From contig CANRDI010000010.1 of the NCBI GenBank assembly GCA_947629335.1, positions 693 through 64,692 of the forward strand: a stretch of 64,000 bases of DNA, written 5' to 3'. Under the pieces are notes generated by a model that saw only the letters and a list, made by a program, of their open reading frames with translations, was not told where the DNA came from and searched no databases. Every line of letters starts with the position of its first letter. Position 1 is the stretch's first letter. The position numbers and the translations under genes were made by a program. This document shows, piece after piece, positions 13,597 to 63,298 of this stretch. The stretch comes from an uncultured Clostridia bacterium (GTDB taxonomy: Bacteria > Bacillota > Clostridia > Oscillospirales > Ruminococcaceae).

Positions 13597-13616
13597 ACTG
13601 CTTTTAATGCTCGTAA

Positions 13617-47839: not shown

Positions 47840-47981
47840 TGTACAGTTAAGGTATTCGCTCCGCGAATGTTATCTGATTGTTTTTGAAGGAAAGAGCGTA
47901 AACAACCCGTTGCGGTGGTTTACGCTCATTTATTTTAAACACAATCTAAATCATTCACGAAGTGAATACCTTAACTGTACA
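47840..47981. repeat. 142-bp segment with perfect 18-bp terminal inverted repeats and an internal hairpin
   Basis: TGTACAGTTAAGGTATTC (47840-47857) / GAATACCTTAACTGTACA (47964-47981); inner GAGCGTAAAC..GTTTACGCTC. Confidence 0.7.
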
Positions 47982-48023
47982 TTCAACAATATAAATTGTA
48001 CACTATTAACCCCCTGCCGATTT

Positions 48024-49181
48024 CTACATTTTCTTTTTTATGCTTTCAAGCCTGTTCAGCGCCTCGGAAAGTGTATCTTCCTTTTTGGCGAAATGCAGGC
48101 GGATAAGGTTGTTTACAGGCTCGCGGAAGAAGCTCGAACCCGGCACTGCTCCAACTCCGACTTTTTCGGCAAGTTTTTCGCAGAACTCAAGGTCGCTTTT
48201 ATATCCGAACTCCGAAATGTCTATAAGCACATAATAAGCTCCCTGCGGCGTGGTGTGCGAAAGCCCTATGAGGTCAAGTCCATTCAGAAACATATCCCGC
48301 TTTTTCGTGTACTTTTCGCGCAGGTCGCTGTAATATTCATCGCCAAATTCAAGACCCGTTACCGCCGCTTCCTGCAAGGGCGCTGCCGCTCCCACCGTCA
48401 GGAAATCGTGAACCTTTTTCGCCGTTTCAATGATATGCGCGGGCGCGATTATATATCCGAGCCTCCAGCCCGTTATCGAGTACGTTTTCGACAACGACGA
48501 GCAGGAAATAGTGCGCTCCCACATATTCGGCAGCGATGCGAAATAAATATGCTCGTTCGGCTTGTATACGATATGCTCGTAAACTTCATCCGTTATCACA
48601 AACGTATCGTATTTCTCAGCAAAGTCGGCTATTATCTGCAATTCTTCAAGCGTGAAAACCTTTCCGCAGGGATTTGAGGGATTGCAGAGAATAAGCGCTT
48701 TCGGGCGCTGTTTAAATGCATTTTCCAAAATGTCCGCGTCGAATTTGAACGTCGGCGGCACAAGCGGAACATAAATAGGTTCTGCTCCCGAAAGTATCGC
48801 GTCCGCTCCGTAATTCTCGTAAAACGGCGAAAATACTATAACTTTATCGCCCGGATCGCAGACTGTCATCATTGCCGCCATCATTGCTTCGGTGCTGCCG
48901 CAGGTAACAACTATCTCGCTGTTCGGGTCAATTTCGCGTTTCATAAGACGCGACTGCTTCCTTGAAAGCGCCTCGCGGAAATTCTGCGCACCCCATGTTA
49001 TCGAATACTGGTGAAAATCCTCTTTTGTGACCTCGGCTAAACGGTCAAGAATTTCTTTGGGCGGCTCAAAATCGGGAAAGCCCTGTGACAGATTTACCGC
49101 GCCGTATTTCAGCGATATTCTCGTCATTCTGCGTATCACCGAATCGGTAAAGCCGTCTGTTCTTCGGGAAAGCTTCGGCAT
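48024..49181 (-). CDS. PLP-dependent aminotransferase class I (YbdL/glutamine transaminase K-like)
   Basis: AVNLSQGFPDF, NPSNPCGKV, DEVYEH and SLSKTYSITGWRLGY. Confidence 0.9.
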   Translation of the reverse strand: MPKLSRRTDGFTDSVIRRMTRISLKYGAVNLSQGFPDFEPPKEILDRLAEVTKEDFHQYSITWGAQNFREALSRKQSRLMKREIDPNSEIVVTCGSTEAMMAAMMTVCDPGDKVIVFSPFYENYGADAILSGAEPIYVPLVPPTFKFDADILENAFKQRPKALILCNPSNPCGKVFTLEELQIIADFAEKYDTFVITDEVYEHIVYKPNEHIYFASLPNMWERTISCSSLSKTYSITGWRLGYIIAPAHIIETAKKVHDFLTVGAAAPLQEAAVTGLEFGDEYYSDLREKYTKKRDMFLNGLDLIGLSHTTPQGAYYVLIDISEFGYKSDLEFCEKLAEKVGVGAVPGSSFFREPVNNLIRLHFAKKEDTLSEALNRLESIKKKM

Positions 49182-49194
49182 TTTGTCACCTCCG

Positions 49195-50535
49195 TTAAAT
49201 CACATAGTCGAGTTTGCGCTCGTCGATAATGCGCCTTGATTTATGCTCTGAGCGGGTATCAAGTCCGCCGTCGGGGTGAACGACAACGCTGTACGGCTTT
49301 ACGCCTATTCTTGCTTTCAGCGCGTCTGAAACCTCTTTTGAAACCTCCTCGTCGGACTTTGGATTATCGGAATTCTTTTCTATCTCGACCGAATATTTGC
49401 AGGTGAAATCTTTCTCAAAAACGCGGATAAGATATTCGCCCGTAATTCCCGACATATCGCGTATTACTGCCTCTATATCGCTTGGGAAAACATTTACGGC
49501 GGACACTATAAACATATCGTCCTTTCTGCCGCTTATATGTATTCTTCCGTGAGTGCGTCCGCACGAGCAGGGCGTGTTGTCGATCCAGCCTATATCGCCC
49601 GTGCGGAAGCGGATAAGCGGACGGGCATGCTTGCGGAGCGTTGTAAATACAAGCTCTCCGACCTGTCCCGGCTCTAAAACTTCTCCCGTATGTATATCAA
49701 CGGTTTCAACAAGAATGTGATTTTCCGCGATATGAAGTCCGTCCTTTGCTTCGCACATTGCAGCGCAAGCTCCGAAAATGTCCGAAAGTCCGTAAAAGTC
49801 GTAAACCTCCGCGCCCCACAAATCCTCAATCGCCTTTCTTGTAGCGTCGATTGAGCCGCCAAGCTCTCCCGCGACAATTATCTTCTTTATGTTCAAGTCC
49901 TTTTTCGGGTCAATACCGCTTTTCAGAGCCTTTTCGCCGAGCTGCCACGCGTATGACGGCGAAGTCCAGATTATAGTCGGCTGATAGGTTTTAAGCACGA
50001 ACAGAAGTCTTTCGCTCGGAAGCGTTCCGCCCCATATGCAGAGCGCGCCGAGGTTCTGCGCTCCGATAACGTCGGGACCGCCGACGTACAGCGAAAAGTT
50101 CAGCGCGTGGACGTATCTGTCCTTCGGGCGCATACCTATCTGCCAAAACCAGCGGCTTTCGGTGTCCTGAAACTCGTCAAAATCCTTTTTGGTAAACGGG
50201 CTCATTGTCGGCACTCCCGTAGAACCCGACGAGGTTGAGATAAACACAACGTCCTCTTCGGGAACGGCGCACAATTCACCGAGGAAAGAACCTTTCCCCT
50301 GAGTGTCGCGCTGGGTTTTCTTGTCGATAAACGGAAACTTCTGAATGTCCTTTAAGGTCTTGATGTCCTCAGGTTTAACTCCCGCCTCGTCAAAAGAGCG
50401 CTTGTAATACGGCGCATTTTCATACGCGAACTTTACTATCTCTTTCAGATCTTCAAGCTGATGTTTTTCCAGCTCCCCGCGGGGCATTGTTTCAAGTTCC
50501 TCGTTCCAGAATTTGCTGTTTAAATCTCTACCCAT
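49195..50535 (-). CDS. Phenylacetate-CoA-ligase-like (PaaK family) acyl-CoA ligase
   Basis: STSSGSTG.P, YGLSDI.G, LIRFRTGD and GRKDDMFIV. Confidence 0.9.
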   Translation of the reverse strand: MGRDLNSKFWNEELETMPRGELEKHQLEDLKEIVKFAYENAPYYKRSFDEAGVKPEDIKTLKDIQKFPFIDKKTQRDTQGKGSFLGELCAVPEEDVVFISTSSGSTGVPTMSPFTKKDFDEFQDTESRWFWQIGMRPKDRYVHALNFSLYVGGPDVIGAQNLGALCIWGGTLPSERLLFVLKTYQPTIIWTSPSYAWQLGEKALKSGIDPKKDLNIKKIIVAGELGGSIDATRKAIEDLWGAEVYDFYGLSDIFGACAAMCEAKDGLHIAENHILVETVDIHTGEVLEPGQVGELVFTTLRKHARPLIRFRTGDIGWIDNTPCSCGRTHGRIHISGRKDDMFIVSAVNVFPSDIEAVIRDMSGITGEYLIRVFEKDFTCKYSVEIEKNSDNPKSDEEVSKEVSDALKARIGVKPYSVVVHPDGGLDTRSEHKSRRIIDERKLDYVI

Positions 50536-51443
50536 TATAATTTTTCCTCCTGATTGAATTTATAATTTTTGTCAATATACCCCCACTTTATGTCGCGGGA
50601 AGTTATTATCGTCTGAATATCCTCGTCCGTCAAATGACGAAAACGGCTTTGCTTTTTAAGATAATCGGCGGGGTTTGAGAAGTTTTTTGGGCGGTAGTTC
50701 AGTTTATATTCTCCGTTTTCATATTCCGCAAGCACCCACAGCCCGCAGTTTACTATCTCTTTTGCAATCTCCACCGTTTCGTCGGACGGTATTCCCCAGC
50801 CTGTCGGGCAGGGCGCGATTATGTGAATGAATTTCGTCCCCTTTATCTTTGAGGCTTTCTCGACCTTTCGCATAAAGTCCTGCAAAAATCCTACGTTTGC
50901 CGTAGCGGCGTACGGAATATCGTGCGCGGCGACTATCTCGAACATATTCTTTTTCGGCCGGAGATTTCCTCGGATGTTTTTTCCCGCAGGAGTTGTAGTC
51001 GTCCGCGCCCCGAAAGGCGTAAGCGAGCTTTTCTGAATACCTGTGTTCATATAAGCCTCGTTGTCATAGCAGATGTAGAGAATGTCGTCGTTTCGGTCAA
51101 TTGCTCCCGAAAGAGCCTGCAATCCTATGTCGGCAGTTCCTCCGTCGCCCGCGAAACCCACCGCCTGAAAGTCGGTTATGCCCTGCGCGCGAAGTCCCGC
51201 TTCTATTCCCGTAAGCATTGACGCTGTTCCCGCAAATGTGGAAATAATGGCGTTGTTTGAAAAGCACAGCTGCGGGAAATTGAACCCGACCGCCGACATA
51301 CAACCCGCAGGAAGTACTGCGACAGTCCGCTCTCCAAGAACCTTCAGCGCTATCCTCACGGCAAGACTTCCTCCGCAGCCCGCGCAAGCCTTGTGTCCGT
51401 AAAAATATTCGTTTTCGTCAAGCGTTTTTGCGGTAATGCTCAA
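50535..51443 (-). CDS. porB: 2-oxoacid:ferredoxin oxidoreductase beta subunit (TPP-binding)
   Basis: GHKACAGCG, GDGGTADIG, YDNEAYMNTG.Q and IIAPCPTGW. Confidence 0.9.
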   Translation of the reverse strand: MSITAKTLDENEYFYGHKACAGCGGSLAVRIALKVLGERTVAVLPAGCMSAVGFNFPQLCFSNNAIISTFAGTASMLTGIEAGLRAQGITDFQAVGFAGDGGTADIGLQALSGAIDRNDDILYICYDNEAYMNTGIQKSSLTPFGARTTTTPAGKNIRGNLRPKKNMFEIVAAHDIPYAATANVGFLQDFMRKVEKASKIKGTKFIHIIAPCPTGWGIPSDETVEIAKEIVNCGLWVLAEYENGEYKLNYRPKNFSNPADYLKKQSRFRHLTDEDIQTIITSRDIKWGYIDKNYKFNQEEKL

Positions 51444-52603
51444 ATCCCCTCGCCTCCTGTCCCGATAAATTCCGTCTTTTGAGTTTCGACTTTCATTTCA
51501 CTGAAAATCCGCTCGATTTCAGTCTGGGCAATATCCTGCCCGCCGAGCCCGCCGATATAGTCCGACACGGGCAGCGTAAGTCCCGCTTTTTTCAATGCTG
51601 AATTTACGTTTGTATAAACCGTGCCCTCATTCCCGAACGAAATGTCTTTTTCCAGCACCGCCGCCGCTTTCGCATTGTTAAGCGCCTTTGCGATTTCGTC
51701 ATTCGGAAAAGGTCTTATGTACCTGAGCCGCAGAAGTCCGACTTTATCGCCGTTTTCCCTCAGCTTGTCAACGGTTTCGCGTACAAGCCCCGCGATACTC
51801 CCCAAGGTGATTAAAATATACTCCGCGTCATCTGTTTTGTAATTCTCGACAAGCCCCGTGTATTCCCTGCCGAATATTTTCTTGAATTTCAGCTCCGCTT
51901 CTTTTATAACGTCAACTGCCGCCAACATTCCCAGATGTTCTTTGTACTTAAACAGCGCGTTGTATTCCGGACCTGCCGAGAATGCGAGATTTTTCGGGTT
52001 TGAAAAATCAAGTTTGTTTTCCGTTTCAAATTTCGGCAATAACTCGTCAGCCTGTTCTGCTGTAGGAACATCAACCACTTCATAAGTGTGCGTCAGCACA
52101 AAGCCGTCAAGGTTTGCCATAAACGGCGTTGAAACATCTTTGTGTTCGGAAATGTAATAGCTCATAAGCGCCAAGTCAAGCGCTTCCTGAGCATTTTCGG
52201 CGTATGCCTGTATCCACCCGCAGTCAAGAAGCGAAAGCGAATCGCGTTGGTCGCCGTAGATATTCCACGGGAGTGCGGTAGAGCGGTTTGCGTTCATCAT
52301 CACTATCGGAAACCGCCCGCCCGACGCATACACAAGGCACTCAGCCATATAGAGCAGACCCTGCGAGGAAGTGGCGGTAAAGGCTCTCGCGCCGACCGCC
52401 GACGCGCCTATAGCACAGGACAGCGCGGAATGTTCGGACTCAACGTGAATAAACTGAGAATTAAGGCTTTTGTCCTCGACCATTTCGGAAAGCCGCTCGA
52501 CAACAATTGTCTGCGGGGTTATGGGGTAAGCGGAAATGACCTGCACACGCGCAAGCCGTATTCCCTCGGCAAACGCCTCGTTTCCCGACAAAAACTTTCT
52601 CAT
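51440..52603 (-). CDS. porA: 2-oxoacid:ferredoxin oxidoreductase alpha subunit
   Basis: SAYPITPQT, ESEHSA, TATSSQGL and DGF.LTHT.E. Confidence 0.9.
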   Translation of the reverse strand: MRKFLSGNEAFAEGIRLARVQVISAYPITPQTIVVERLSEMVEDKSLNSQFIHVESEHSALSCAIGASAVGARAFTATSSQGLLYMAECLVYASGGRFPIVMMNANRSTALPWNIYGDQRDSLSLLDCGWIQAYAENAQEALDLALMSYYISEHKDVSTPFMANLDGFVLTHTYEVVDVPTAEQADELLPKFETENKLDFSNPKNLAFSAGPEYNALFKYKEHLGMLAAVDVIKEAELKFKKIFGREYTGLVENYKTDDAEYILITLGSIAGLVRETVDKLRENGDKVGLLRLRYIRPFPNDEIAKALNNAKAAAVLEKDISFGNEGTVYTNVNSALKKAGLTLPVSDYIGGLGGQDIAQTEIERIFSEMKVETQKTEFIGTGGEGI

Positions 52604-52890
52604 ATTTCCGCCTCCATTTCAATTGCGCCGAGTTTGCAGGTCTTGGCGCAAATGCCGCACCCCTTGCAGAAATCATAGTCTATAGCTATCTTTCCGTCCT
52701 GCTTTGCGATAACTCCGTCGGGACAGCAGAGATAACACTTAAGACAACCGACGCATTTTGCCTTGTCAACCGTCGGTCGGACGTTTCTCCAGCCCGCGTT
52801 TTTGCTTACGAGATAACCTGCTTCAAAAACGGTGTATTCGGGGATTTCGGAAAGCGTTTTCGGAACTTTTTCCCTGAGATACGGTTTCAT
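52600..52890 (-). CDS. porD: 2-oxoacid:ferredoxin oxidoreductase delta subunit (2x[4Fe-4S])
   Basis: GWR..RP, CVGCLKCYLCCPD and DYDFCKGCGICAKTC. Confidence 0.9.
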   Translation of the reverse strand: MKPYLREKVPKTLSEIPEYTVFEAGYLVSKNAGWRNVRPTVDKAKCVGCLKCYLCCPDGVIAKQDGKIAIDYDFCKGCGICAKTCKLGAIEMEAEI

Positions 52891-53420
52891 TTTTTCAGCT
52901 CCTTTCCGACTATCTCCGCCGCCGCGCGGACGACCTCGGCGTTCTTTTTCTGCAATTTTTCGGGCATTCCTAAAAATATCGCGTTTTCAATATACTCTGC
53001 GGTGATTTTCGGAAAAACCGCCGAAATTGCTCCGAGCATAACGGTGTTTGCGACGGGAAGTTTTGCCCGCTCGGCGATTTCATTCGCGTCAAATGCGACA
53101 ACTCGCCTGTCGTTTACGGGTTTTCTCGTATTCAGAAGAATAACGCCGCCGTCTTTAAGCTCGTCAAATGCCTTTTCCGAAAACAGAGTATCGTCAAGAA
53201 ACACGCTTATGTCGGCTTTTTTAATTTCGCTGCGGTTTCCCAAAGGCCTGCCGTCAAGTTTTGTAAACGCGCGGATAGGCGCGCCTCGGCGCTCAGGTCC
53301 GAAAGACGGAAACGCAAGCGCGTAATTGTTTTCACTTTTCAGCGCATAAGCTGCTCCCAAAAGCCGCGCGGCGGTAAACGCTCCCTGACCGCCCCTGCCG
53401 TGCCATAAAATTTCTGTCAT
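52887..53420 (-). CDS. porG: 2-oxoacid:ferredoxin oxidoreductase gamma subunit
   Basis: WHGRGGQGA, FPSFGPERRGAP and NTVMLGA. Confidence 0.9.
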   Translation of the reverse strand: MTEILWHGRGGQGAFTAARLLGAAYALKSENNYALAFPSFGPERRGAPIRAFTKLDGRPLGNRSEIKKADISVFLDDTLFSEKAFDELKDGGVILLNTRKPVNDRRVVAFDANEIAERAKLPVANTVMLGAISAVFPKITAEYIENAIFLGMPEKLQKKNAEVVRAAAEIVGKELKK

Positions 53421-53430
53421 AATTCATCTC

Positions 53431-54351
53431 CTATCGTTTATAGCGCAGAAAAAAGCGCTGTAATTTGTTGAACAAAAACGAAATAATAACCACGACTATT
53501 CCTATAACAAGCAGACCGACAATCGTTCTGGTGTAATCTCCGAAGTCGGAGTAGTTTTTGACGTAATAGCCCATTCCGCTGTTCGCGCCTATCATCTCGG
53601 CGGAGGTAAGCAGGATAAACGAAACGCTTAAACCCTGATTGCAGCCGACAAAGATTTCCGAAAGCGACGCGGGAAGTATTACCGAAAACAGCATCGAAAA
53701 TTTCCCGACATTCAGTACTCTTGCGGAATCTATTACCCTTTTGTCAACGTTAAGCACTCCGCTCATTGTTCCCGATAGCACGGGCCAGAATGACGCAAGG
53801 AAGATAACGAAAACCGAAACGCTTCTAAATGTTGGCAAAAGTGCAATTCCGTAAGGTATGTACACGATAGGCGGAATTGAACCCAAAAATTTGGAAATAT
53901 AAGTCGCGGCATTTCCAAGGCGCACGCTGTATCCCAGAAACAATCCGAGCGGGATTTCGATAACCAGCGCCAGAAGATAACCCTGAACGATAATTGCGAG
54001 CGAACTTCCGATATTCAGCAATATCTTGCTTATGTCCTCAATGAACTGTCTGAAAACATCTCCGGGCGGAGGAAAAAGAGCCTTGTCTAAAATATCGGAC
54101 TTTGCCGAAGCTATCGTCCACAAAATCAAAAGCGCATACAAAAACGAGATTATGTCCGAAAAGAGGTTTAGTCCCTGTTCTTTTTTTGAAATCAGCGAAA
54201 CGAGAATTACCGCCGCTTCGGCGATAAGCGAAAACCATATCACATATATTCCGTTGTCCTCTTTCAATTCGCTGTTCGGAAGAAACTGAACCGCGATAAG
54301 CACTATAAACAGAAAATTTACGGCGCGGAGAAACCTTTTCTTTGCCGTCAT
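53431..54351 (-). CDS. ABC transporter permease (SsuC-like, extra N-terminal helices)
   Basis: SIPPIVYIP, ASFWPV, GV.NVD...IDSAR.L and AEMIGA.SGMG. Confidence 0.88.
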   Translation of the reverse strand: MTAKKRFLRAVNFLFIVLIAVQFLPNSELKEDNGIYVIWFSLIAEAAVILVSLISKKEQGLNLFSDIISFLYALLILWTIASAKSDILDKALFPPPGDVFRQFIEDISKILLNIGSSLAIIVQGYLLALVIEIPLGLFLGYSVRLGNAATYISKFLGSIPPIVYIPYGIALLPTFRSVSVFVIFLASFWPVLSGTMSGVLNVDKRVIDSARVLNVGKFSMLFSVILPASLSEIFVGCNQGLSVSFILLTSAEMIGANSGMGYYVKNYSDFGDYTRTIVGLLVIGIVVVIISFLFNKLQRFFLRYKR

Positions 54352-55151
54352 CAGAGAACCACCTCCTCGCCGCCTATCCTGCCTGTTATGTCGTTGTAGA
54401 AATAAGAGATAATGCTGTTGCGGAAAGTGGTGTATTCCTGCGTCTGAACAAGCTGTACGCGGTTTCTCGGACGGGAAAACGGAACGTTTATTTCCTTATA
54501 AACTCTCCCCGGACTTGCCGTCATCATTACTATCCTGTCGGAGAGAAGAATTGCCTCGTCAATGTCGTGAGTTACAAACACAACAGTCTTTCTGCTTTCT
54601 TCCCACAACTCTAAAAGCAGCTCCTGCAATGCCGTTCGGTTTACCGCGTCAATTGCGCCGAACGGTTCGTCCATAAGCAGTATTTCCGTGTCCATTGCAA
54701 GCGCTCTCGCAATAGCAACGCGCTGCTGCATTCCGCCCGAAAGCTGAGAGGGATATTTGTTTTTGAATTTGGTTAGTCCGACTTTATCCAGAAAGCTGTC
54801 CGCAAGCTCCATTCTTTCGGCTTTTGAAAGCGTTTTTTGGGTCTGCTTTATCCCAAACGCAACATTTTTCCGCGCCGTAAGCCACGGGAACAGCGAATAA
54901 TGCTGAAACACAACTCCGCGGTCTGTGCCCGTTCCCACAACGGGTTTTCCGTCGATAAGAACGCTTCCGTCCGTCGGCGGGTTTATGCCCTCAAGAACGC
55001 TCAGCAGGGTGCTTTTTCCGCACCCGCTGAACCCTATAACGCTTACAAATTCGCCCGAATTTACCTTAAACGAAACATCCTTTAAAGCCGTGAAATTCTT
55101 GTTCTTTTCGACATAATCCACCGTTAAATTATTTATTTCTATCGTACTCAT
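54351..55151 (-). CDS. ABC transporter ATP-binding protein (SsuB/TauB-like)
   Basis: GFSGCGKST, FQHYSLFPW, LSGGMQQRV, LMDEPFGA and VTHD; start MSTIE at 55151. Confidence 0.92.
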   Translation of the reverse strand: MSTIEINNLTVDYVEKNKNFTALKDVSFKVNSGEFVSVIGFSGCGKSTLLSVLEGINPPTDGSVLIDGKPVVGTGTDRGVVFQHYSLFPWLTARKNVAFGIKQTQKTLSKAERMELADSFLDKVGLTKFKNKYPSQLSGGMQQRVAIARALAMDTEILLMDEPFGAIDAVNRTALQELLLELWEESRKTVVFVTHDIDEAILLSDRIVMMTASPGRVYKEINVPFSRPRNRVQLVQTQEYTTFRNSIISYFYNDITGRIGGEEVVL

Positions 55152-55188
55152 TATAAACCCTTTCAAATCCGCCGAAATTTTGTATGAA

Positions 55189-56277
55189 TTACTCAAACTG
55201 CTCAAAATGCTCTGAAAGCTGTTTATATATCTCGTCATTCGGATTTTCTTCGATAAGAGAATTTAAAGCGCTTTCGTAAATCGAAATGTTGTAAAGTGAA
55301 TTTATGTCATAATCGTTTGTATATCCAAGCGCCACAATTTCATCTTTAAGTTTCGCAGTTCCGATCTTGTCGGGGTCGGGATTTGACGTGCCGTAACCGC
55401 CGTAGACCTCTGTGCGGATAAAATCTTCGTCAATGTCAATGTAGACCTTTACGTCCTCTATTGTCTGCTCCTGATTTTCCTGCGAGAATTTGTATGCCTT
55501 TATAAGCGCGCGTTCAAACGCGGTGTAGCTGTCGATATGTTCGGAAAGAGCGGCAGTCGGCGCAACTTGTCGGCAGCAAGGCTGATTTGCAAGCGCTTCT
55601 TCCTCTGAGCAGCGATAAACTATCGAATATCCCTCGCTTTCGGCAAGCGACGCATACGGCGAATACACGGAAGCCGCGTCTATGCTGTCATTTTTGATTG
55701 CATTATAAGCGTCTTTCTGGCTGTCAAAGTAAACGATATTTACCTTGTCCTCTCCATCGCCTATTTCAATTCCCGCGTTTTTCAGCAATATCTGCAACTC
55801 CGCGTCCTGAACGCTGTTTTTGACCGAAGCGACGTTTTTGCCTTTGAGAATGTTTATATCCCAATCCGTCAGCCCATCGGTGAATTTTTTCTTTATGACA
55901 TAGCCGTGACCGTTTGTCATTGCACCGCCGAAAATGGTCAGATCCTGCCCGTTGCTCTGGAATGTGATTATCGGAACAGAGCCGATAAACGCAACATCAA
56001 GTTTTCCCGAAGTAAGACCGTTTGAAAGCTCCGCAGCGCTTGAAAACTGAGTGAGCGTTACATTCAGCCCCTCTTCTTCAAAATATCCTTCTTCCTTTGC
56101 TACAAACGCCAAAAGATGCGCTGTGGAATTTAAATGTCCTATCTGAAAATCAGTCTTTGAAAGAGACGATTGCCCGCTTTGATCTGCAGGATTTTCCGAA
56201 TTGCTGCACCCTGTAAATAATAGTGAAAGCGCGAGAATTCCCGCCGCGATTTTATTGTTTATAATTTTTTTGTTCAT
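55189..56277 (-). CDS. ABC substrate-binding lipoprotein (SsuA/NrtA-like)
   Basis: Lipobox LFTGC; A.EEGYFEEEGL.V.L, G.LDVA and NQPCCRQV. Confidence 0.88.
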   Translation of the reverse strand: MNKKIINNKIAAGILALSLLFTGCSNSENPADQSGQSSLSKTDFQIGHLNSTAHLLAFVAKEEGYFEEEGLNVTLTQFSSAAELSNGLTSGKLDVAFIGSVPIITFQSNGQDLTIFGGAMTNGHGYVIKKKFTDGLTDWDINILKGKNVASVKNSVQDAELQILLKNAGIEIGDGEDKVNIVYFDSQKDAYNAIKNDSIDAASVYSPYASLAESEGYSIVYRCSEEEALANQPCCRQVAPTAALSEHIDSYTAFERALIKAYKFSQENQEQTIEDVKVYIDIDEDFIRTEVYGGYGTSNPDPDKIGTAKLKDEIVALGYTNDYDINSLYNISIYESALNSLIEENPNDEIYKQLSEHFEQFE

Positions 56278-56406
56278 TTTATGTTGTCCTTTCTGTCTGT
56301 TTAGTTGTTGTTGTCAAAAAGCGTGATTTTTGTTTACGATGTGTTCTCTTTCATCATTTATAACGCCCCCTTTTCTTAATTATATCACGGAGCGTTTAAA
56401 ATGTCC

Positions 56407-56429
56407 AATATCATATATGAATAGTAGGC
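56407..56429 (-). promoter_or_regulatory. Putative sulfur-regulon operator, copy 1
   Basis: GCCTACTATTCATATATGATATT abuts the -35 (TGGACA-17-TATAAT) of the ABC-POR operon. Confidence 0.55.
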
Positions 56430-56481
56430 TATAAATAAAATCTATATCTTTTATATTTTTCAAAGCTTTTTGCTATACTCT

Positions 56482-57399
56482 TTATACATCAAGCGAACCA
56501 AGATAGTTCTTCATTTCCTCAATGTAGAGATTGCCCATTTGGCTTATTATAAGGTCGCGTTTTACGATATAGCCTATCTCCATTTTGTCGCTTTCGCCGT
56601 CTGAAAACGGAATTGCGGTATAATCCCCGCCGTTGAGTTCAGAGCAGATAATTCCCGAGCAAAGCGTATATCCGTTAAGTCCTATCATAAGATTTAACAT
56701 TGTGGCGCGGTCGTTTGCCTTTATCGTTCGGGAATAGTTTTTCGTGCTGAAAATTTCCTCGACGTAATAATCCGAGCTTTCGTTTCCTTGTTCAAAGGAA
56801 AGGCAGGGATACGGTTCAAGTTCTTTTAATCCTATGGTTTTATTTTTCGCAAGAGGATGTCCTTTCCAAAGATAAACATAGGCTTTGCAGTCCACAAGGC
56901 GGTGAAATTCAAGGTTATTTGCTTTCAATACCTTTGTGAGAAACTTTCTGTTAAAGCCGCTCATAAAGATTATGCCTATCTCGCTTTTCATCGTGCGAAC
57001 GTCCTCTATGACCTCTCTTGTCTGAGTTTCGCGGACGGCAAATTCATATTCTGTGGTGTTGTATTTTTTCACAAGCTCGACAAAGCATTTTACCGCAAAC
57101 GAATAGTGCTGTGAAGAAATTCCGAATTTCTTCTTTACCGCGCCGTTTTTCCCATAGCGTTCAATAAGCTGTTCATAGCGGTAGTAAATTTCTCGTGCAT
57201 AGGAGATAAATTCAATTCCGTCATTTGTAAGCGTCATTCCTTTCCCGCCGCGGTAAAACAATGTAACGCCGAGCTCCGATTCAAGCTCGCGCACAGCCGC
57301 CGTAAGCGACGGCTGTGAAATGTACAGCTCTTCGGCGGATTTACTCAAAGAGCCCGTTTTCGCAATGGTTAAGATATAATGCAGTTGTTGTAATGTCAT
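56482..57399 (-). CDS. LysR family regulator (CmbR/CysL-like)
   Basis: MTLQQL.Y...IA..GS.SK.AEEL.ISQPSL helix-turn-helix; sulfur gene context. Confidence 0.92.
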   Translation of the reverse strand: MTLQQLHYILTIAKTGSLSKSAEELYISQPSLTAAVRELESELGVTLFYRGGKGMTLTNDGIEFISYAREIYYRYEQLIERYGKNGAVKKKFGISSQHYSFAVKCFVELVKKYNTTEYEFAVRETQTREVIEDVRTMKSEIGIIFMSGFNRKFLTKVLKANNLEFHRLVDCKAYVYLWKGHPLAKNKTIGLKELEPYPCLSFEQGNESSDYYVEEIFSTKNYSRTIKANDRATMLNLMIGLNGYTLCSGIICSELNGGDYTAIPFSDGESDKMEIGYIVKRDLIISQMGNLYIEEMKNYLGSLDV

Positions 57400-57468
57400 A
57401 AAAATTCTCCTAGTTCCGCACTTGAAAATAAGCGGAATAAGTGTTATAATATATCCGAGGTGAAAAAA

Positions 57469-57891
57469 ATGAAAATTTCGACAAAAGGGCGCTATGCTCT
57501 GAGAATGTTGATTGACCTTGCCGAAAACGGCAATTCGGGTTATGTAGCGCTTAAAGATATTGCCGAAAGGCAGGGAATATCAAAAAAATATCTCGAACAG
57601 ATCGTGCCTATTTTAAGCCGCGGGAAAATTCTCAAAACAACGCGCGGATTTCAGGGCGGGTATATGCTGTCAGCTCCGCCCGAAAATTTCACGGTCGGAC
57701 AGATTTTAAGGCTTACAGAGGGAAGTCTTGCGCCCGTCGCGTGCGCGGAGTGTCCCGAAGATTGCGAGCGCAGCGGCGAATGTAAAACGCTTTGCATATG
57801 GCAGGGACTTAACCGCGTTATAAATGAATACCTTGACGGCATTACGCTGTCAGACGCCGTAAATCAAAACATAGCAATTGACGAAATTTAA
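57469..57891 (+). CDS. Rrf2 family transcriptional regulator with a Cys cluster
   Basis: MKISTKGRYALR, I...YLEQI, RG..GGY.L, EG.LAPV.C..C...C.....C; promoter TTGAAA-17-TATAAT at 57422-57450. Confidence 0.92.
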   Translation: MKISTKGRYALRMLIDLAENGNSGYVALKDIAERQGISKKYLEQIVPILSRGKILKTTRGFQGGYMLSAPPENFTVGQILRLTEGSLAPVACAECPEDCERSGECKTLCIWQGLNRVINEYLDGITLSDAVNQNIAIDEI

Positions 57892-57901
57892 AACGCGCTT
57901 T

Positions 57902-58810
57902 TTATTTATACAGCCCTTTTGTAAAATAACGGTCGCCGCGGTCGGGAAGAATTATCACGATATTGCCGACAGCGCCCGAATTTATAAGCTTTTTCGCCGC
58001 CGCAAGCGCACCGCCCGATGATGAGCCTGCAAATATTCCCTCTTTTTTCGCAAGCTCCCTCGCGCAGTCGAAAGCCTCGCCGTCGGTTATCTTTACGACC
58101 TTATCGACAAGCGACATATCCATTGTTTCGGCGATAAAATCGTTTCCTATGCCCTCGATATCGTAATCTCCGTGTTCTCCGCCGCCCATTGTAGAGCCGA
58201 CGGGGTCTGCAAGTACGCCGACGATACGGGGGGTTTTCTGTTTGAGATAACGCACAGCTCCCGTATAAGTGCCGCCGCTGCCCGCTCCCGCAACAAAATA
58301 GTCTATATTTCCGCTCAGATCGTCATAAATTTCCCGTCCCGTTGTGTTGTAGTGTACAAGCGGGTTTGCCTGATTTTTAAACTGGTCAAGAGTTATCGCA
58401 CCATCTATTTTATCACGCAGCTTTGCCGCTTCTTCGGACGCAAGTTTCATTCCTCCCTCGCGGGGAGTGTTGATTATTTCCGCACCTAAAGCGCGCAGGA
58501 GTGTTTGTTTTTCCTCCGAAAATTTTGTCGGAACAACAAATATTATCCGATAGCCCTTGTTCAGTGCCGCAAACGCTATCCCAAGTCCCGTGTTTCCCGC
58601 TGTTGCGTCAACTATCGTTCCTCCAGCTTTTAACAGCCCTTTTTCCTCCGCGTCCTCTATCATTGCTTTGCCTGTTCTGTCCTTGACGCTGCCCGACGGG
58701 TTGTAAAGCTCAAGCTTTGCGAAAATATGCGCGTTTTTGTCTGCGCTTATTTGCGTAAGCTCTACAAGCGGAGTGTTTCCGATAAGCTCCTGCATTGAAT
58801 GATAAAGCAT
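57902..58810 (-). CDS. mccA: O-acetylserine-dependent cystathionine beta-synthase (cysteine synthase family)
   Basis: AKLELYNPSGSVKDR, ATAGNTG, GAGSGGT and EGIG; coupled to the cystathionine lyase. Confidence 0.8.
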   Translation of the reverse strand: MLYHSMQELIGNTPLVELTQISADKNAHIFAKLELYNPSGSVKDRTGKAMIEDAEEKGLLKAGGTIVDATAGNTGLGIAFAALNKGYRIIFVVPTKFSEEKQTLLRALGAEIINTPREGGMKLASEEAAKLRDKIDGAITLDQFKNQANPLVHYNTTGREIYDDLSGNIDYFVAGAGSGGTYTGAVRYLKQKTPRIVGVLADPVGSTMGGGEHGDYDIEGIGNDFIAETMDMSLVDKVVKITDGEAFDCARELAKKEGIFAGSSSGGALAAAKKLINSGAVGNIVIILPDRGDRYFTKGLYK

Positions 58811-59970
58811 TATTTTACCTCGCTTTCTTCAATTGCCCGCGACAGGTCGGCGATAATGTCGTCTGCGCTTTCAATTCCCACCGACAGCCTTATTAAGCCG
58901 TCTGTTATTCCGACCTTCTGACGCGTTTCATACGGAATTGACGCGTGCGTCATACTCGCGGGGTGGCAGATAAGGCTTTCCGCTCCGCCAAGGCTTTCCG
59001 CAAGCGCGATAAGTTTAAGCGACGAAAAGAACTTTTTGATGTCGTAATTTTCGTACAGCTCAAATGAGAGCATTGCGCCGCCGTTTTTCGCCTGTTTTTT
59101 GTTTATTTCATAGCCTTGCGCGTCGGGAAGTCCGGGATAGTACACCTTTTTCACAGCCTTGTGCTGTTTTAAAAATTCCGCAGCTTTTTTCGCATTTTCA
59201 ACGTGTCTGTCAAGCCTTACGCCGAGCGTTTTTATTCCTCTTATCAGCAAAAATGAGTCAAACGGACCGAGAACTCCTCCCGTTGCATTCTGAATAAACG
59301 CAAGTCTTTCGGAAAGGTTTTTGTCGTGTACAACAACTAATCCCGCGACAAGGTCGCTGTGACCGCCGAGATATTTTGTCGCGCTGTGAACGACAATGTC
59401 TATCCCCTGCTCTATAGGTCTTTGAAGATATGGCGTCATAAAGGTGTTGTCGGCAATTGACAGAATGTTGTGCCTTTTGGCAATGTCGGCTATTCCCTCA
59501 AGGTCTGTAATTGTAAGCAGAGGATTTGCGGGAGTTTCAATAAGTATCGCCTTTACGTCGGGCGTTATTTTTTTGTCCAACGCTTCAAGATCGGTCGTGT
59601 CCTCAATTGAATAGCCAATGCCGAAATTGCTGAATATTTTGTCGAGAACGCGGAAAGTACCGCCGTAGACGTTGCTTGAAATAAGTATCTTATCTCCCGT
59701 GTGAAACAGGCTTAAAACAGCCGTTATCGCCGCCATTCCAGAGCCGAACGCAAATCCCGCAGTTCCTCCCTCAAGCTCCGCGATAAGCGCCTCAAGCGCC
59801 GCGCGGGTGGGATTTCCCGTGCGCGAATATTCCCAGCCCGTGTTGTGTCCGAGTTCGGGCTGTTCAAAAGTCGAGGTCTGATAGATAGGGACGTTCACCG
59901 CGCCCGTCTTTTCGTCGCCGTAGATCCCGCCGTGAATAAGCGCGGACTCAATATCATTGTAGTTCTTCAT
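58810..59970 (-). CDS. mccB: Cystathionine gamma-lyase
   Basis: PIYQTSTF, YSRTGNPT, SGMAAI, ETPANP, DNTF, HSATKYLGGHSD and IRLSVGIE. Confidence 0.85.
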   Translation of the reverse strand: MKNYNDIESALIHGGIYGDEKTGAVNVPIYQTSTFEQPELGHNTGWEYSRTGNPTRAALEALIAELEGGTAGFAFGSGMAAITAVLSLFHTGDKILISSNVYGGTFRVLDKIFSNFGIGYSIEDTTDLEALDKKITPDVKAILIETPANPLLTITDLEGIADIAKRHNILSIADNTFMTPYLQRPIEQGIDIVVHSATKYLGGHSDLVAGLVVVHDKNLSERLAFIQNATGGVLGPFDSFLLIRGIKTLGVRLDRHVENAKKAAEFLKQHKAVKKVYYPGLPDAQGYEINKKQAKNGGAMLSFELYENYDIKKFFSSLKLIALAESLGGAESLICHPASMTHASIPYETRQKVGITDGLIRLSVGIESADDIIADLSRAIEESEVK

Positions 59971-59987
59971 AAAATTTCCTCCTGTTT

Positions 59988-60923
59988 TTAAATGTAAAGA
60001 GCATAGCTGTGATTGAAGCTGTCGCCCTTTTGTGCAAGCATAAAATGTACGTTTTCAAACGCCGTAAGGCTGTCGTTTCTGTCGCTGAAAAAACGACGCT
60101 GTATGTTTTTGGGAGGTTCGTGGGTGTTGATGATAAAGCCGTTTTGAGTTATCATCTCGCTTATTTCCTCCGCCGAATAACCGTATTTCATAGGTTCTCC
60201 GAGAAATGCCGTTATTTTTGAAAGCTCATAAACGCGCTCTGCGGCGTTTTCACCGAATGTTGTTTCATCGGGAAAATCAAAGCATAACATACTCCCGAAT
60301 GACGATGCGGACGCTATTTTACAAAGCGTTTCCGAAAGCGCATTCGGAGCAAGATAATACAAAACTCCGAGAAGCGCGAAAAACGACGGCTTTGACGGGT
60401 CAAATCCCGCTTTTATTAGCTCGGTAGGCATATCGTCTTTCATAAAATCGACCGCGGCAAATCGGACGTTTTTAGGGATATTCCAGCCGAGCTTTTTTAT
60501 CCTGTCCAGCTTATATTGCTGAGTATCGGGGTGGTCAATCTCAAAAACGAAGATTTTGTCGTTTGTGTTTCTGAAAGCAAAGGTGTCCATTCCCGCGCCG
60601 CAGATTACATACTGACAACTCCCGCGCTCAAATGCGAACCTTAAAAGCTCTCTTTCGGCAAACGCCGCCCTCGAAAGCGGAATAGGCGAAATAAGCCTGT
60701 CTAACTTTTCGCGGATATCCGCCCCGCAAAACGTATGCGACGGGTCGAAAAGCTCCGAGTGAAAATCGTGTTCTATAAGCTGTCCAATATCCTCGTATTC
60801 GTCCTTTCCCATTAAATCAAAAGCTAAATAGTCGTCGAAAATCTTTGCCTTTGCGAAATTCGAGTGATACGCCCGCGCGAAAGAGCAGAGCTTTGCGGTC
60901 GCGCTTTCCTGCAATTCAATCAT
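59988..60923 (-). CDS. Class I SAM-dependent methyltransferase (LCM/TIGR00027-like)
   Basis: SRAAFAE, QYVICGAG.DT.A.R, FEIDHP.TQ..K and F.AVDF; ATG at 60923 after GAAAGGA. Confidence 0.88.
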   Translation of the reverse strand: MIELQESATAKLCSFARAYHSNFAKAKIFDDYLAFDLMGKDEYEDIGQLIEHDFHSELFDPSHTFCGADIREKLDRLISPIPLSRAAFAERELLRFAFERGSCQYVICGAGMDTFAFRNTNDKIFVFEIDHPDTQQYKLDRIKKLGWNIPKNVRFAAVDFMKDDMPTELIKAGFDPSKPSFFALLGVLYYLAPNALSETLCKIASASSFGSMLCFDFPDETTFGENAAERVYELSKITAFLGEPMKYGYSAEEISEMITQNGFIINTHEPPKNIQRRFFSDRNDSLTAFENVHFMLAQKGDSFNHSYALYI

Positions 60924-60934
60924 AAAATTCCTTT

Positions 60935-61063
60935 CCGAACACAAAATTCCCGCTCGTTTCGTGCAATCCGATTTTGCAGAAAGAGCGGGAATTTCAGAGT
61001 TCATTCATTTGTCCTGTTTACTCAAAAAATGCCCGCTTGTATTTTTTACAACAACAAACGGGC
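60935..61063 (-). promoter_or_regulatory. Four-segment attenuator (1:2, 2:3 antiterminator, 3:4 terminator)
   Basis: Minus strand: seg1 GCCCGTTTGT (61054-63), seg2 ACAAGCGGGC (61031-40), seg3 AAATTCCCGCTC (60983-94), seg4 GAGCGGGAATTT (60944-55) then TGTGTT. AGCGGG of seg2 pairs with CCCGCT of seg3. Confidence 0.75.
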
Positions 61064-61131
61064 GCAGCAATGCCGCCGAGAATTTTACCCTCGGTTGTCG
61101 ATATTGCTAAAGCGGAAATTTTCATAGTCAT
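61018..61131 (-). CDS. Cys-rich leader peptide (37 aa, CCC at codons 26-28)
   Basis: AAGAGGT RBS right after the cysK stop; MTMKISALAISTTEGKILGGIAAPVCCCKKYKRAFFE; TGT TGT TGT at 61048-61056. Confidence 0.75.
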   Translation of the reverse strand: MTMKISALAISTTEGKILGGIAAPVCCCKKYKRAFFE

Positions 61132-61144
61132 AACAGTACCTCTT

Positions 61145-62062
61145 TTATTCGGAAAACATCGGAGTTGAAAGATAGCGTTCGCCTGTGTCGGGCAAAAGCA
61201 CAACGATTGTTTTGCCCTTGTTTTCGGAACGTTTGGAAAGTTCCGAAGCCGCGTAAACTGCCGCTCCGGATGAAATTCCAACAAGCAGACCCTCTTTTCT
61301 CGCGAGCATTCTGCCCGTTTCAAAAGCGTCCTCGTTTTCAACGGCGATTATCTCGTCGTATACGGACGTATTGAGCGTATCGGGAACAAATCCCGCGCCT
61401 ATGCCCTGAATTTTGTGAGGACCGGAAGTTCCCTTTGACAGCACGGGCGAACCCGCAGGCTCAACAGCGACGACCTTGATTTCGGGATTTTTGGATTTAA
61501 GATACTCGCCAACTCCCGTAACAGTGCCGCCCGTGCCTACTCCCGCGACGAAAATATCGACCTTTCCGTCGGTATCCTCCCATATTTCGGGACCCGTTGA
61601 AGCACGATGCGCGGCAGGGTTTGCGGGGTTTGTAAACTGGCTCGGAATAAAGCTTTTCGGCGTATTTTCGGCAAGTTCGCGCGCTTTTTCAATTGCGCCT
61701 TTCATGCCCTTTGCGCCCTCTGTCAGCACAACCTCCGCGCCATATGCTTTAAGCAAATTTCTGCGCTCAATGCTCATGGTTTCGGGCATTGTGAGGATTA
61801 TTCTGTATCCTCTCGCCGCCGCGACCGCCGCAAGCCCTATTCCCGTATTGCCGCTTGTCGGCTCGATAATGACCGAATCGGGTTTAAGAAGTCCTTTTGC
61901 CTCGGCGTCATCGATCATCGCCTTTGCAATTCTGTCCTTAACGCTGCCCGCGGGATTGAAATATTCAAGCTTTGCGTATATCTTCTTGTCTTTTCCAAGG
62001 CTTGAAAGCTTTAAAAGCGGCGTTTTGCCTATAAGGTCGGTTATTTTTTCATAGATTTTCAT
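61145..62062 (-). CDS. cysK: Cysteine synthase A
   Basis: [41 protein letters not shown] and [10 protein letters not shown]. Confidence 0.96.
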
Positions 62063-62086: not shown

Positions 62087-62137
62087 AATACCTATCTGTA
62101 TAGTAGTTATTATAGCACAATATATCAATTTTGTCAA
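62087..62137 (-). promoter_or_regulatory. cysK sigma-A promoter with operator copy 2 over the start site
   Basis: TTGACA-17-TATAAT (62109-62137) followed by AACTACTATACAGATAGGTATT (62087-62108). Confidence 0.7.
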
Positions 62138-62215: not shown

Positions 62216-63298
62216 TTAATTGCAGGCGGCAGGAACGGGAAGCGCAGCTATTCGCCGCCTTAATTCCTCTTTTGAAACGTTGCAGGCGCGGCAATTCGGG
62301 TTTTTGCGACGGATATTTATTGTTCTCTCTTGCATTGAAAGTCCGTTTATTGTCCACAATTTTCCCGAAAGCAGCTCTCCCGCTCCTGTCAGATATTTTA
62401 TACATTCAAGTGCCTGAGTGCTGCCGATTATTCCCGCGATTGCTCCTATAACTCCCGCCTGAGAGCAATTCGGGACGTCGCCCGGAATGTCCTCGAACAA
62501 GCACCTTAAACACGGCGTATTTTCGGGAACATATGTCATAACCTGCCCGTCAAATCTTAAAATTCCGCCGAAGCAAAACGGCTTATCCAGAAGCACGCAC
62601 ACGTCGTTTATCAGAAACTTGGTTTCAAAATTGTCCGAGCCGTCGATAACGAAATCGTATTCGCTTATCAAATTTTCAGCGTTTTTCGGTGTAAGGCTGA
62701 AAGGATACGCCGTGATTTCAATCCCGGAATTCAGCGCAAGCAGATTTTCTTTTGCGGAGAGTGCTTTGTTTTTTCCTTCAAACGAAGTTTTGTGGAGGAT
62801 TTGACGCTGAAGATTTGAAATGCTCACAAAATCGCCGTCGATAATTCCGAGCTTGCCGACTCCCGCTCCTGCAAGATACAGCGCGGCAGGCGACCCAAGA
62901 CCTCCTGCCCCGACAATAAGCGCCGAGGAGTTTTTCAGCTTTTGCTGACCCTTATCGCCTATTTCGGGCAGAATTATCTGACGGTCATAACGCAAAAGTT
63001 CATTTTCCGAAAGGCTGTCAGAGCTGCCCGCAAGCCATTTCCGATAGCCTCCCGCAAGACTTTTTGCGTTAAATCCCTTCTCCGCTAACTTTTCGGCAAA
63101 CTCCGCACTTCTTTCGCCGACAGCGCAGTATAAAATTATGACTTTATTTTCGGGCAGGCAGTTGAAAACGTCCTCCCACAATACGGCGTTTGGAAGATGT
63201 CCGTTTTCAAACGCAGTCCTCCCGCGAATGTCAGCTAAAATATACTCGCTTTCATCAAGCCGCGAAAGCTCGTCACAAGTTATCTCAATAACGCTCAT
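62216..63298 (-). CDS. N-terminal rhodanese fused to a ThiF/MoeB adenylyltransferase
   Basis: ILYCAVGERS rhodanese loop; RYDRQI, VGAGGLG, D.V..SNLQRQ, DG.DNF, CLRC and CRAC Zn motifs. Confidence 0.9.
   Translation of the reverse strand: MSVIEITCDELSRLDESEYILADIRGRTAFENGHLPNAVLWEDVFNCLPENKVIILYCAVGERSAEFAEKLAEKGFNAKSLAGGYRKWLAGSSDSLSENELLRYDRQIILPEIGDKGQQKLKNSSALIVGAGGLGSPAALYLAGAGVGKLGIIDGDFVSISNLQRQILHKTSFEGKNKALSAKENLLALNSGIEITAYPFSLTPKNAENLISEYDFVIDGSDNFETKFLINDVCVLLDKPFCFGGILRFDGQVMTYVPENTPCLRCLFEDIPGDVPNCSQAGVIGAIAGIIGSTQALECIKYLTGAGELLSGKLWTINGLSMQERTINIRRKNPNCRACNVSKEELRRRIAALPVPAACN

Follow-up and report, generated by a model that had tools for sequence, protein, structure and literature searches.

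Methanogens convert arylacetates to aromatic amino acids by means of a PaaK-like ligase, an IOR and an aminotransferase, and rumen bacteria make leucine, isoleucine and valine from branched-chain acids. In such reductive-carboxylation routes an AMP-forming ligase is followed by a ferredoxin-dependent 2-oxoacid synthase and then by a transaminase. Here we analyse a nine-gene operon (positions 56277-48024, minus strand) in a 64,000-nucleotide stretch of DNA from an uncultured bacterium of the Ruminococcaceae (contig CANRDI010000010.1, positions 693 to 64,692; the whole stretch is called the window below). This operon has the same three steps and comes from the same habitat, but differs from the known routes in that it encodes a four-subunit Por/Vor-type 2-oxoacid:ferredoxin oxidoreductase (OFOR) rather than an IOR, appears to be under methionine and cysteine control, and by implication has methionine or homocysteine as its product. 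We lean, at slightly better than even chances, towards reading it as a starvation module for methionine and cysteine that would build a sulfur amino acid on a carboxylic acid with one carbon less.

Parts of the proposed route also occur in well-described sulfur metabolism. Transaminases of the KAT/glutamine-transaminase-K (GTK) type, which act on 2-keto-4-methylthiobutyrate (KMTB), close the canonical methionine salvage cycle (the methylthioadenosine or MTA cycle), as MtnE does in B. subtilis. KMTB transaminases of this kind, among them E. coli YbdL, are the nearest solved relatives of the operon aminotransferase, and its proposed last step, KMTB to methionine, would be the same. The canonical cycle obtains KMTB from methylthioribose via an O2-dependent dioxygenase, whereas the KMTB of the operon would come from the CoA thioester of 3-(methylthio)propionate (MMPA) and CO2. 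MMPA is a product of methionine fermentation and of the demethylation of dimethylsulfoniopropionate (DMSP). In the DMSP demethylation pathway (DmdB, DmdC, DmdD), the FadD-type ligase DmdB acts on MMPA, and MMPA-CoA is broken down to methanethiol and acetaldehyde; both pathways would begin by turning MMPA into its CoA thioester, but the operon would carboxylate the thioester and keep the methionine. To our knowledge, oxygen-independent recovery of methionine is only partly known and the anaerobic fate of MMPA is poorly mapped.

Enzymes and importer of the operon

The operon consists of nine co-oriented open reading frames (ORFs) arranged head to tail, with spacings, from 5' to 3', of 38, -1, 10, -4, -4, -4, -1 and 13 nt. 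In this order they encode a binding protein, an ABC ATPase and an ABC permease, the gamma, delta, alpha and beta subunits of an OFOR, a PaaK-family ligase and a class I aminotransferase. An initial annotation of the window had described nine tightly coupled genes here, and each of the nine ORFs was confirmed on the minus strand at the positions it gave. We regard the gene arrangement as far from chance, and the order of the core recurs in every fetched locus of relatives that has sufficient flank. Families were assigned by Pfam and NCBIfam profile searches, with scores read against curated cut-offs, and solved relatives were taken from a sequence search of the PDB. By inspection of their motifs, the delta and beta subunits of the OFOR, the ligase and the aminotransferase keep their cofactor and catalytic residues.

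The OFOR set is complete, with thiamine pyrophosphate (TPP) and Fe-S sites, and only its gamma and delta subunits pass subfamily models. The gamma subunit (52887..53420; this and all other genes of the operon are on the minus strand) scores 147.9 bits against TIGR02175 PorC_KorC, for which the cut-off is 81.1, and the delta subunit (52600..52890), which carries two [4Fe-4S] motifs, scores 85.3 bits against TIGR02179 PorD_KorD, with a cut-off of 60. The alpha subunit (51440..52603) has POR_N and PFOR_II domains and falls below the cut-offs of both the PorA_Arch model (434.8 versus 550) and the VOR alpha model (350 versus 646); it is thus neither a curated POR nor a curated VOR. The beta subunit (50535..51443), with its TPP site and proximal cluster, has a TPP_enzyme_C domain, a GDG motif at residue 99 and cysteines at 20, 23, 48 and 212, and scores 357 against the VorB-type model and 347 against PorB, each with a cut-off of 405. 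The operon enzyme thus shares with PorABCD and VorABCD the subunit set, the cofactor motifs and the gamma and delta models, but its alpha and beta subunits miss the POR and VOR cut-offs, and the genome has a separate PFOR of the NifJ type. It is the only Por/Vor-type OFOR of the genome, in which the other 2-oxoacid oxidoreductases are the NifJ-type PFOR and an IOR.

The ligase (49195..50535) has AMP-binding and AMP-binding_C_2 domains, and its P-loop (TSSGSTGVPT) and C-terminal lysine are intact. Its best matches in the PDB are PaaK (2y4o, 4r1l) and 2-hydroxyisobutyryl-CoA synthetase (6hdw). PaaK (TIGR02155; 2y4n, 2y4o, 4r1l) gives the best structural and sequence match to the operon ligase, which shares with it the P-loop and the catalytic lysine, but at 286.4 bits the ligase stays under the equivalog cut-off of 646.3, and the surroundings of its gene hold no paa catabolic genes. 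As 2-hydroxyisobutyryl-CoA synthetase illustrates, enzymes of the PaaK family can also act on acids other than aryl acids (PMC8388817). The aminotransferase gene (48024..49181; PF00155, 4.6e-69), which follows 13 nt after the ligase gene, belongs to the YbdL/KAT/GTK group and has the SLSK motif of the pyridoxal-phosphate lysine. In line with the initial annotation, which had called it YbdL/GTK-like, the solved protein nearest to it is the methionine aminotransferase YbdL of E. coli (1u08, 6e-74), and KAT and GTK enzymes come next. Its best NCBIfam matches are PRK08912, PRK07777 and PRK09082, each under its cut-off; for PRK09082, the methionine aminotransferase, the score is 333.8 bits against a cut-off of 420. 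We take the family labels of the operon proteins to be right, and these labels do not by themselves fix the specificities.

Of the genes of the module, the ligase is the best conserved. When one genome per prokaryotic species was scanned, 326 ligase relatives were returned, and the 80 best loci (at least 89% identity) were annotated against the window proteins. The top database matches in Oscillospiraceae, Ruminococcus and Anaerotignum have ligases 85-91% identical, and over gut and rumen Clostridia the range among the best matches is 85-98%. The core in the annotated loci, which is invariant, consists of the OFOR gamma, delta, alpha and beta genes together with the ligase and the aminotransferase, and the aminotransferase adjoins the ligase in most fetched loci with enough flank.

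The three importer genes at the 5' end of the operon are less constant. The first encodes a lipoprotein binding protein of the NMT1/SsuA/TauA/NrtA fold (55189..56277; Pfam NMT1_2, 3.7e-20, with a lipoprotein signal). It had been called SsuA-type at the outset; membership in the NMT1/SsuA family and fold stands, but the protein misses the SsuA cut-off, with 112 bits against TIGR01728 SsuA_fam (cut-off 163.5), which places it at family level only. Its AlphaFold2 model is of moderate confidence (pLDDT 77.6), and the best Foldseek matches of this model, with E-values of about 1e-17 and identities of 21% at most, are TauA, SsuA, NrtA/CmpA, ThiY and THI5; the PDB sequence search gave weak matches to the NMT1 family only. 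The ATPase gene (54351..55150; PF00005, 7e-34) is nearest to NCBIfam models of the NtrCD, SaoA and TauB types. Its longest ORF opens at 55238 (54351-55238), and the true start is likely the ATG at 55150, which stands behind GAAAGGG. The permease (53431..54351; PF00528) is nearest to SaoP, NtrB and TauC, all under cut-off. In comparison with SsuABC/TauABC, NrtA, CmpA and ThiY, the binding protein has the same fold, and the ATPase and permease belong to the same subfamily, but it has an invariant PCC motif and no sulfonate monooxygenase lies nearby; annotation of the window ORFs gave no ssuD- or tauD-like gene in the region. The vicinal cysteine pair in question (NQPCCRQVA, C234-C235, nt 55573-55578, minus strand) is invariant across 34 orthologues, and it may lie roughly where THI5/NMT1 enzymes have their CCCFC motif. 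In many relatives, a lipoprotein of about 60-80 residues with repeated (V/I)PDCC motifs is encoded directly upstream of the SsuA-fold binding protein (L062, 3946-4182; also L066, L070, L053, L050 and L020). It is absent from the window and matches no Pfam family.

Among the 41 annotated loci with at least 4.5 kb of upstream flank, 31 have an SsuA-like importer, three have a MetQ/MetN/MetI-like importer instead, and seven have none. The MetQ-type binding protein of these orthologous operons retains the conserved motifs and has a match of 4e-60 to MetQ of N. meningitidis, and we take this MetQNI to be a genuine methionine importer. In one Ruminococcus metagenome-assembled genome (MAG) the importer stands under its own copy of the module promoter. 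Because it has been swapped or lost in orthologous operons and can have a promoter of its own, we consider the importer a separable unit of the module.

Methionine and cysteine signals upstream of orthologous operons

The clearest indication of what the module serves comes from the regulatory regions of its relatives. In at least 31 distinct relatives, a leader peptide of about 31 codons follows the conserved LysR-type promoter of the orthologous operon, with a pattern of roughly MT..MCMNxCMCMTQKAVFCVKACCAFRM-stop. Non-initiator methionine makes up 15.8% of its residues and cysteine 17.6%, as against 2.3% and 2.0% in the long ORFs of the genome. An example is found at 3766-3861 of locus L062, and others are in L018, L028, L041, L065, L092 and L105, with a typical end of ...CCAFRM-stop. 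In Ruminococcus sp. JE7B6 a strong terminator follows the peptide; when this one leader was folded and compared with 200 shuffles, it folded better than all 200 (z -3.0). The same layout recurs in Anaerotignum, in a Ruminococcus MAG and in other genomes. In Acetobacterium the leader is a short MTKSMCCLM, and a Synergistaceae operon consisting of a related ligase and importer has a KMMMCMMR leader followed by a terminator. Viewed alongside leader-peptide and T-box amino-acid operons, the relatives use classical attenuation logic, whereas the window copy is without such a leader. We also considered reading the cysteine-rich mini-ORFs as precursors of peptides that are made by the ribosome and modified after translation (RiPPs), and rejected this: a conserved promoter precedes them and a terminator follows (as folded for one example), and the annotated contexts show no gene resembling a maturase.

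An uncultured Finegoldia genome uses a different device. There, a T-box (129 bits; L089:6661-6885) lies directly upstream of OFOR-ligase-aminotransferase, and its specifier loop, GAAUAUGG, reads AUG, the methionine codon. The position of the specifier was calibrated on T-boxes of the window genome, namely those of tyrS (UAC), pheS (UUC), cysE-cysS (UGC) and trpE (UGG). Beyond this one T-box, the distant copies of the module show no further riboswitch in L087-L092, and none was found in L097, L098 or L105-L111. Altogether, three unrelated sensing devices in different lineages argue that the module is switched on when methionine (and cysteine) is short. Induction signals for a shortage of methionine and cysteine would in turn mark it as a module for biosynthesis or acquisition, not for catabolism. 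Onward transfer of the sulfur to cysteine by the neighbouring LCM-mccB-mccA genes would account for the cysteine codons in the leaders.

In the window genome, transcription would start from a LysR-type activated promoter under the neighbouring LysR regulator, with promoter and box recognised by conservation. The promoter (56379..56407, minus strand) is of the sigma-70 type, TGGACA-17-TATAAT with an extended -10 TG; it is the best in the region, at 11/12, and its position is conserved. A LysR-type (T-N11-A) box at 56408..56446 (minus strand) abuts its -35 element just downstream of the LysR gene, and includes the operator site noted earlier at 56407-56429. Footprinting of about 25 orthologous promoters gave ATAGG-N5-CCTAT and then ACCTAT-N7-ATAGGA directly upstream of TTGGACA. 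The LysR gene itself (56482..57399, minus strand; HTH_1 and LysR_substrate domains) lies directly upstream of the operon. In 26 of the 41 loci this gene has stayed beside the module, and the conserved box lies downstream of it; its product is likely the activator of the operon.

The initial annotation had proposed an operator shared with cysK, and the comparison of promoters supports this. The genome has four matches to CTACTA-N3-A-N-ATA-N-G, and the operon, cysK and moeB each have one of them in their promoter, a count that is partly circular in that the pattern was drawn from these three sites. Evidence independent of this pattern comes from relatives, in which the cysK promoters have CCTAT-N7-ATAGG, a box of the same type, directly after the -10 element; in the window a related box (62087..62108, minus strand) follows closely on the -10 element of cysK. 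These positions suggest activation at the operon and repression at cysK. The fourth match to the pattern, at position 8322 of contig 39, is upstream of a promoter and a structured-looking leader that precede a gene for an S-component of the energy-coupling factor (ECF) type, and it may be due to chance. A second operator-like repeat, CATAGTAAACAWAT, is found just after the -10 in promoters of L016, L024, L038, L078 and L090, twice in the last of these, and may be a site of the Rrf2 regulator described below.

At the position of the relatives' Met/Cys-rich leader peptide, the window has a mini-ORF of seven codons, MMKENTS (56334..56357, minus strand), which is probably a remnant of such a leader. 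An attenuator in the leader of the window operon was ruled out, since this stretch has no significant fold (z -0.9) and only the seven-codon mini-ORF. We also looked for a riboswitch or T-box in the window, and an Rfam scan at gathering thresholds gave only a lysine riboswitch at 13615-13788, which is unrelated. The window copy would then rely on the LysR-type promoter alone.

A candidate route to methionine and its alternatives

An AMP-forming ligase, an OFOR and a transaminase acting in series would convert R-COOH to R-CH(NH2)-COOH with one carbon from CO2. If methionine is the sensed end product, then these three reaction types would make MMPA the only acid R-COOH that fits by chemistry. 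In the route that we propose, an organosulfur acid, most likely MMPA, would enter through the SsuA-fold ABC importer or by diffusion. The PaaK-family ligase would use ATP to form the CoA thioester, a reaction type suggested by its family, and the OFOR, working as a synthase, would use reduced ferredoxin and CO2 to turn the thioester into KMTB. The YbdL-like aminotransferase, by family similarity, would then convert this keto acid to L-methionine, from which the adjacent LCM-methyltransferase, mccB and mccA genes, with cysK, could pass the sulfur to cysteine. Net flux would run in the CO2-fixing, synthase direction. The initial annotation had argued this anabolic direction from the importer, which carries little weight now that MetQNI is seen to be swapped in, or the importer missing, in many orthologous operons; the AMP-forming ligase and the apparent induction by methionine shortage in relatives are better grounds for it. 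The broader reading in that annotation, salvage of a thio-acid, is supported by the genomic comparisons made here. Its choice among MMPA, 3-mercaptopropionate and thioglycolate has narrowed towards methionine or homocysteine as product.

Several points weigh against this reading. The curated equivalog cut-offs are missed for PaaK, PorA/VorA, SsuA and the methionine aminotransferase. The operon OFOR, as the only one of the Por/Vor type in the genome, may have additional substrates. The importer, being interchangeable in relatives or absent from them, need not carry the substrate of the ligase; the pairing of the ligase with an SsuA-fold importer in Synergistaceae lends some support to the idea that it does. 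With respect to regulation, the methionine T-box was found in one genome only, the leaders hold cysteine codons as frequently as methionine codons, which makes homocysteine, the branch point, a plausible product as well, and the window copy is without an attenuator, such that the case for sensing of methionine and cysteine in this genome is made by synteny and the homologous promoter box. The loci that we compared are also related and were probably spread by transfer, so their counts are not independent.

The plausibility of homocysteine leads to the question of whether the substrate might have a free thiol. In that case 3-mercaptopropionate would yield homocysteine, which mccAB would take to cysteine and MetH to methionine, or thioglycolate would yield cysteine by way of 3-mercaptopyruvate. 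A branch-point product would fit the near equality of cysteine and methionine codons in the leaders, in most genomes the operon has mccA and mccB as its direct neighbours, MetH is present in the window genome, and the T-box genome, which is without MetH, has two short MetE-like genes. However, the specifier of the T-box is methionine, the Synergistaceae leader is dominated by methionine, the alternative importer is a methionine importer, and the aminotransferase is closest to enzymes of the Met/KMTB type. Free-thiol CoA thioesters and 4-mercapto-2-oxobutyrate are, moreover, reactive and cyclise, and the version from thioglycolate to cysteine leaves the sensing of methionine unexplained. We therefore think a free-thiol acid unlikely. 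It is also conceivable that the acid has no sulfur at all, and that the same enzyme logic supplies a carbon skeleton, with 3-hydroxypropionate giving 4-hydroxy-2-oxobutyrate and then homoserine, or glycolate giving hydroxypyruvate and then serine. Regulation by methionine and cysteine would still be sensible, and MetA, together with a MetY-like gene on contig 5 that was identified by eye only, could use the homoserine. Against this, the pairing with SsuA-fold or MetQ-type importers would be unexplained, the YbdL/GTK-type aminotransferase is a poor fit, and homoserine also feeds threonine, yet the leaders give no threonine signal; we hold supply of a sulfur-free skeleton to be very improbable.

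If the module were instead a general one for volatile fatty acids or arylacetates, making leucine, valine, isoleucine and phenylalanine from isovalerate, isobutyrate, 2-methylbutyrate and phenylacetate, the sulfur genes around it would be incidental. The ligase is of the PaaK family, the OFOR is nearest to POR and VOR models and is the only Por/Vor-type enzyme of the genome, and many carriers are rumen bacteria resembling Ruminococcus, a genus in which cultured rumen species need branched-chain and aryl acids. But one would then expect signals for leucine, isoleucine, valine or phenylalanine in place of the methionine and cysteine codons and the methionine T-box that the relatives have, and the module stays linked to mccAB, cysK and MetQNI in different orders and phyla. 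Aryl acids have a separate cluster with IOR, PaaK and ACT genes in this genome, and the module is present in only about 1-3% of the sampled Clostridia and Bacillota genomes. Such a general role seems quite improbable to us. Finally, OFORs and aminotransferases are reversible, AMP-forming ligases are reported to run in reverse in some syntrophs, and some orthologous operons have MetQNI importers, all of which would allow a catabolic operon that takes up methionine or another sulfur amino acid for transamination and oxidative decarboxylation, with the ligase running backwards to yield ATP. An operon that degrades methionine would need the opposite of what the T-box and the methionine-codon leaders indicate, namely induction by a shortage of charged tRNA-Met, and archaeal peptide fermenters use ADP-forming synthetases for the ATP-yielding step (PMC3942289). 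We find a catabolic role hard to believe, and assign it the lowest probability of the readings weighed here.

Returning to the preferred reading, synthesis of methionine or a related sulfur amino acid from a shorter acid, its principle, acid to amino acid via an OFOR, is known, and its use for methionine with a dedicated regulon appears new. Full-text literature searches turned up no account of the module, none of MMPA being reductively carboxylated and none of dual Met/Cys leaders before an OFOR operon, and a 2026 review of PFORs makes no mention of the module. We put it at about an even chance that the operon represents an undescribed anaerobic route to methionine, with a dedicated ferredoxin-dependent KMTB synthase, its own ligase and transaminase and exchangeable importers, in the form of a module that spreads horizontally among acetogenic, gut and rumen anaerobes under the control of attenuators from a new family of dual Met/Cys leader peptides, of a methionine T-box or of a LysR activator. 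If true, this would add a CO2-fixing methionine salvage route to anaerobic metabolism and extend Por/Vor-type OFORs and PaaK-type ligases to a new class of substrate, and it would explain a very highly conserved ligase that is currently annotated as phenylacetate-CoA ligase. It would also suggest cross-feeding in rumen and gut communities, whereby products of methionine fermentation are returned to methionine, with a bearing on methionine supply in ruminant nutrition.

Spread of the module and its gene neighbourhood

The core of ligase, OFOR and aminotransferase is present in more than 80 loci of Clostridia, and the 80 best loci come from rumen and gut Clostridia of several families, many of the carriers being Ruminococcus-like. 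Its distribution is patchy: a near-identical ligase was found in four other genomes in a sample of 399 Clostridia and in two in a sample of 401 Bacillota (both samples being even), the carriers belonging to scattered families and none of them to the close kin sampled. The module core has a G+C content of 49.5% versus 44.2% for the 2.48-Mb genome, within the top 1% of 8-kb windows. The patchy spread and the raised G+C fit horizontal spread.

A second tier of loci, in other families and with ligases 59-63% identical, has the aminotransferase, usually the OFOR, and either type of importer. Acetobacterium has MetQNI-OFOR-ligase-aminotransferase amid genes for cysteine and methionine, Lachnospiraceae KM106-2 has LysR-ligase-OFOR-aminotransferase followed by LCM-mccB-mccA, and the module core is also present in a Thermoplasmata MAG. 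The Synergistaceae operon mentioned above (L110:447-6341, also from a MAG) combines the ligase and an SsuA-fold ABC importer with a protein of the HpaB/AbfD family and has no OFOR; it may represent a different fate of the same CoA thioester. Ligase homologues at 51-58% identity were rejected as members of the same system: they stand alone, in unrelated contexts and without Met/Cys leaders. We would accordingly draw the boundary of the system near 59% ligase identity. One homologue at 56% identity (L103:7659-10678) adjoins a COG1900-type homocysteine-biosynthesis gene (PF01837 HcyBio). Cultured carriers of the module are Acetobacterium wieringae, Ruminococcus sp. JE7B6, Bianquea renquensis NSJ-32, Anaerotignum sp. 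MB30-C6 and Lachnospiraceae bacterium KM106-2.

Linkage to sulfur genes is a regular feature of the module. Genes for mccA, mccB, cysK, luxS or the LCM methyltransferase lie within 10 kb in 35 of the 41 loci, and the same association is seen in the more distant copies of Acetobacterium and Lachnospiraceae KM106-2. The lack of such linkage in orthologous clusters, which the initial annotation had named as grounds for refuting its reading, is thus contradicted. The neighbours that it had listed in the window, LysR, Rrf2, mccAB and cysK, are likewise all confirmed by domain annotation. The Rrf2-family regulator (57460..57891, plus strand; TIGR00738, 120 bits), which is divergent from LysR, has the cysteine cluster CAECPEDCERSGECKTLC and falls under the cut-offs of the IscR and CymR models. 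Beyond it lies an operon on the minus strand (57902..61004) with mccA-like (57902-58810), mccB-like (58810-59970) and LCM methyltransferase (59988-61004) genes, a context for conversion of methionine to cysteine. It is of the same type as the clostridial ubiG-mccBA operons that convert methionine to cysteine, and the LCM-mccB-mccA trio is syntenic with the module in most relatives. Its leader (61005-61144, minus strand) contains three adjacent TGT codons. Further along are cysK (61145-62062) and a MoeB/ThiF-rhodanese gene (62216-63298).

Elsewhere in the genome, contig 5 (30610-38189) has the second PaaK-like ligase, in a cluster of IOR-alpha, IOR-beta, PaaK and ACT genes that can serve aromatic acids. 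This cluster lies tail to tail with MetY-like, CysK-like and Rrf2 genes. MetH and MetA are both present in the genome. No mtn genes were seen among the window genes, the whole genome not having been searched for them.

The operon appears to end in a hairpin with a T-rich tail at 47888..47927 (minus strand), made up of GAGCGTAAAC ... GTTTACGCTC and then TTTCCTT. A scan for consensus terminators did not pick it up, and the hairpin was recognised by reading the sequence itself. An inverted repeat of 17 nt, GTACAGTTAAGGTATTC / GAATACCTTAACTGTAC, flanks this terminator 3' of the aminotransferase gene (47840-47989) and has a likeness to elements in the same window that resemble repetitive extragenic palindromic (REP) sequences.

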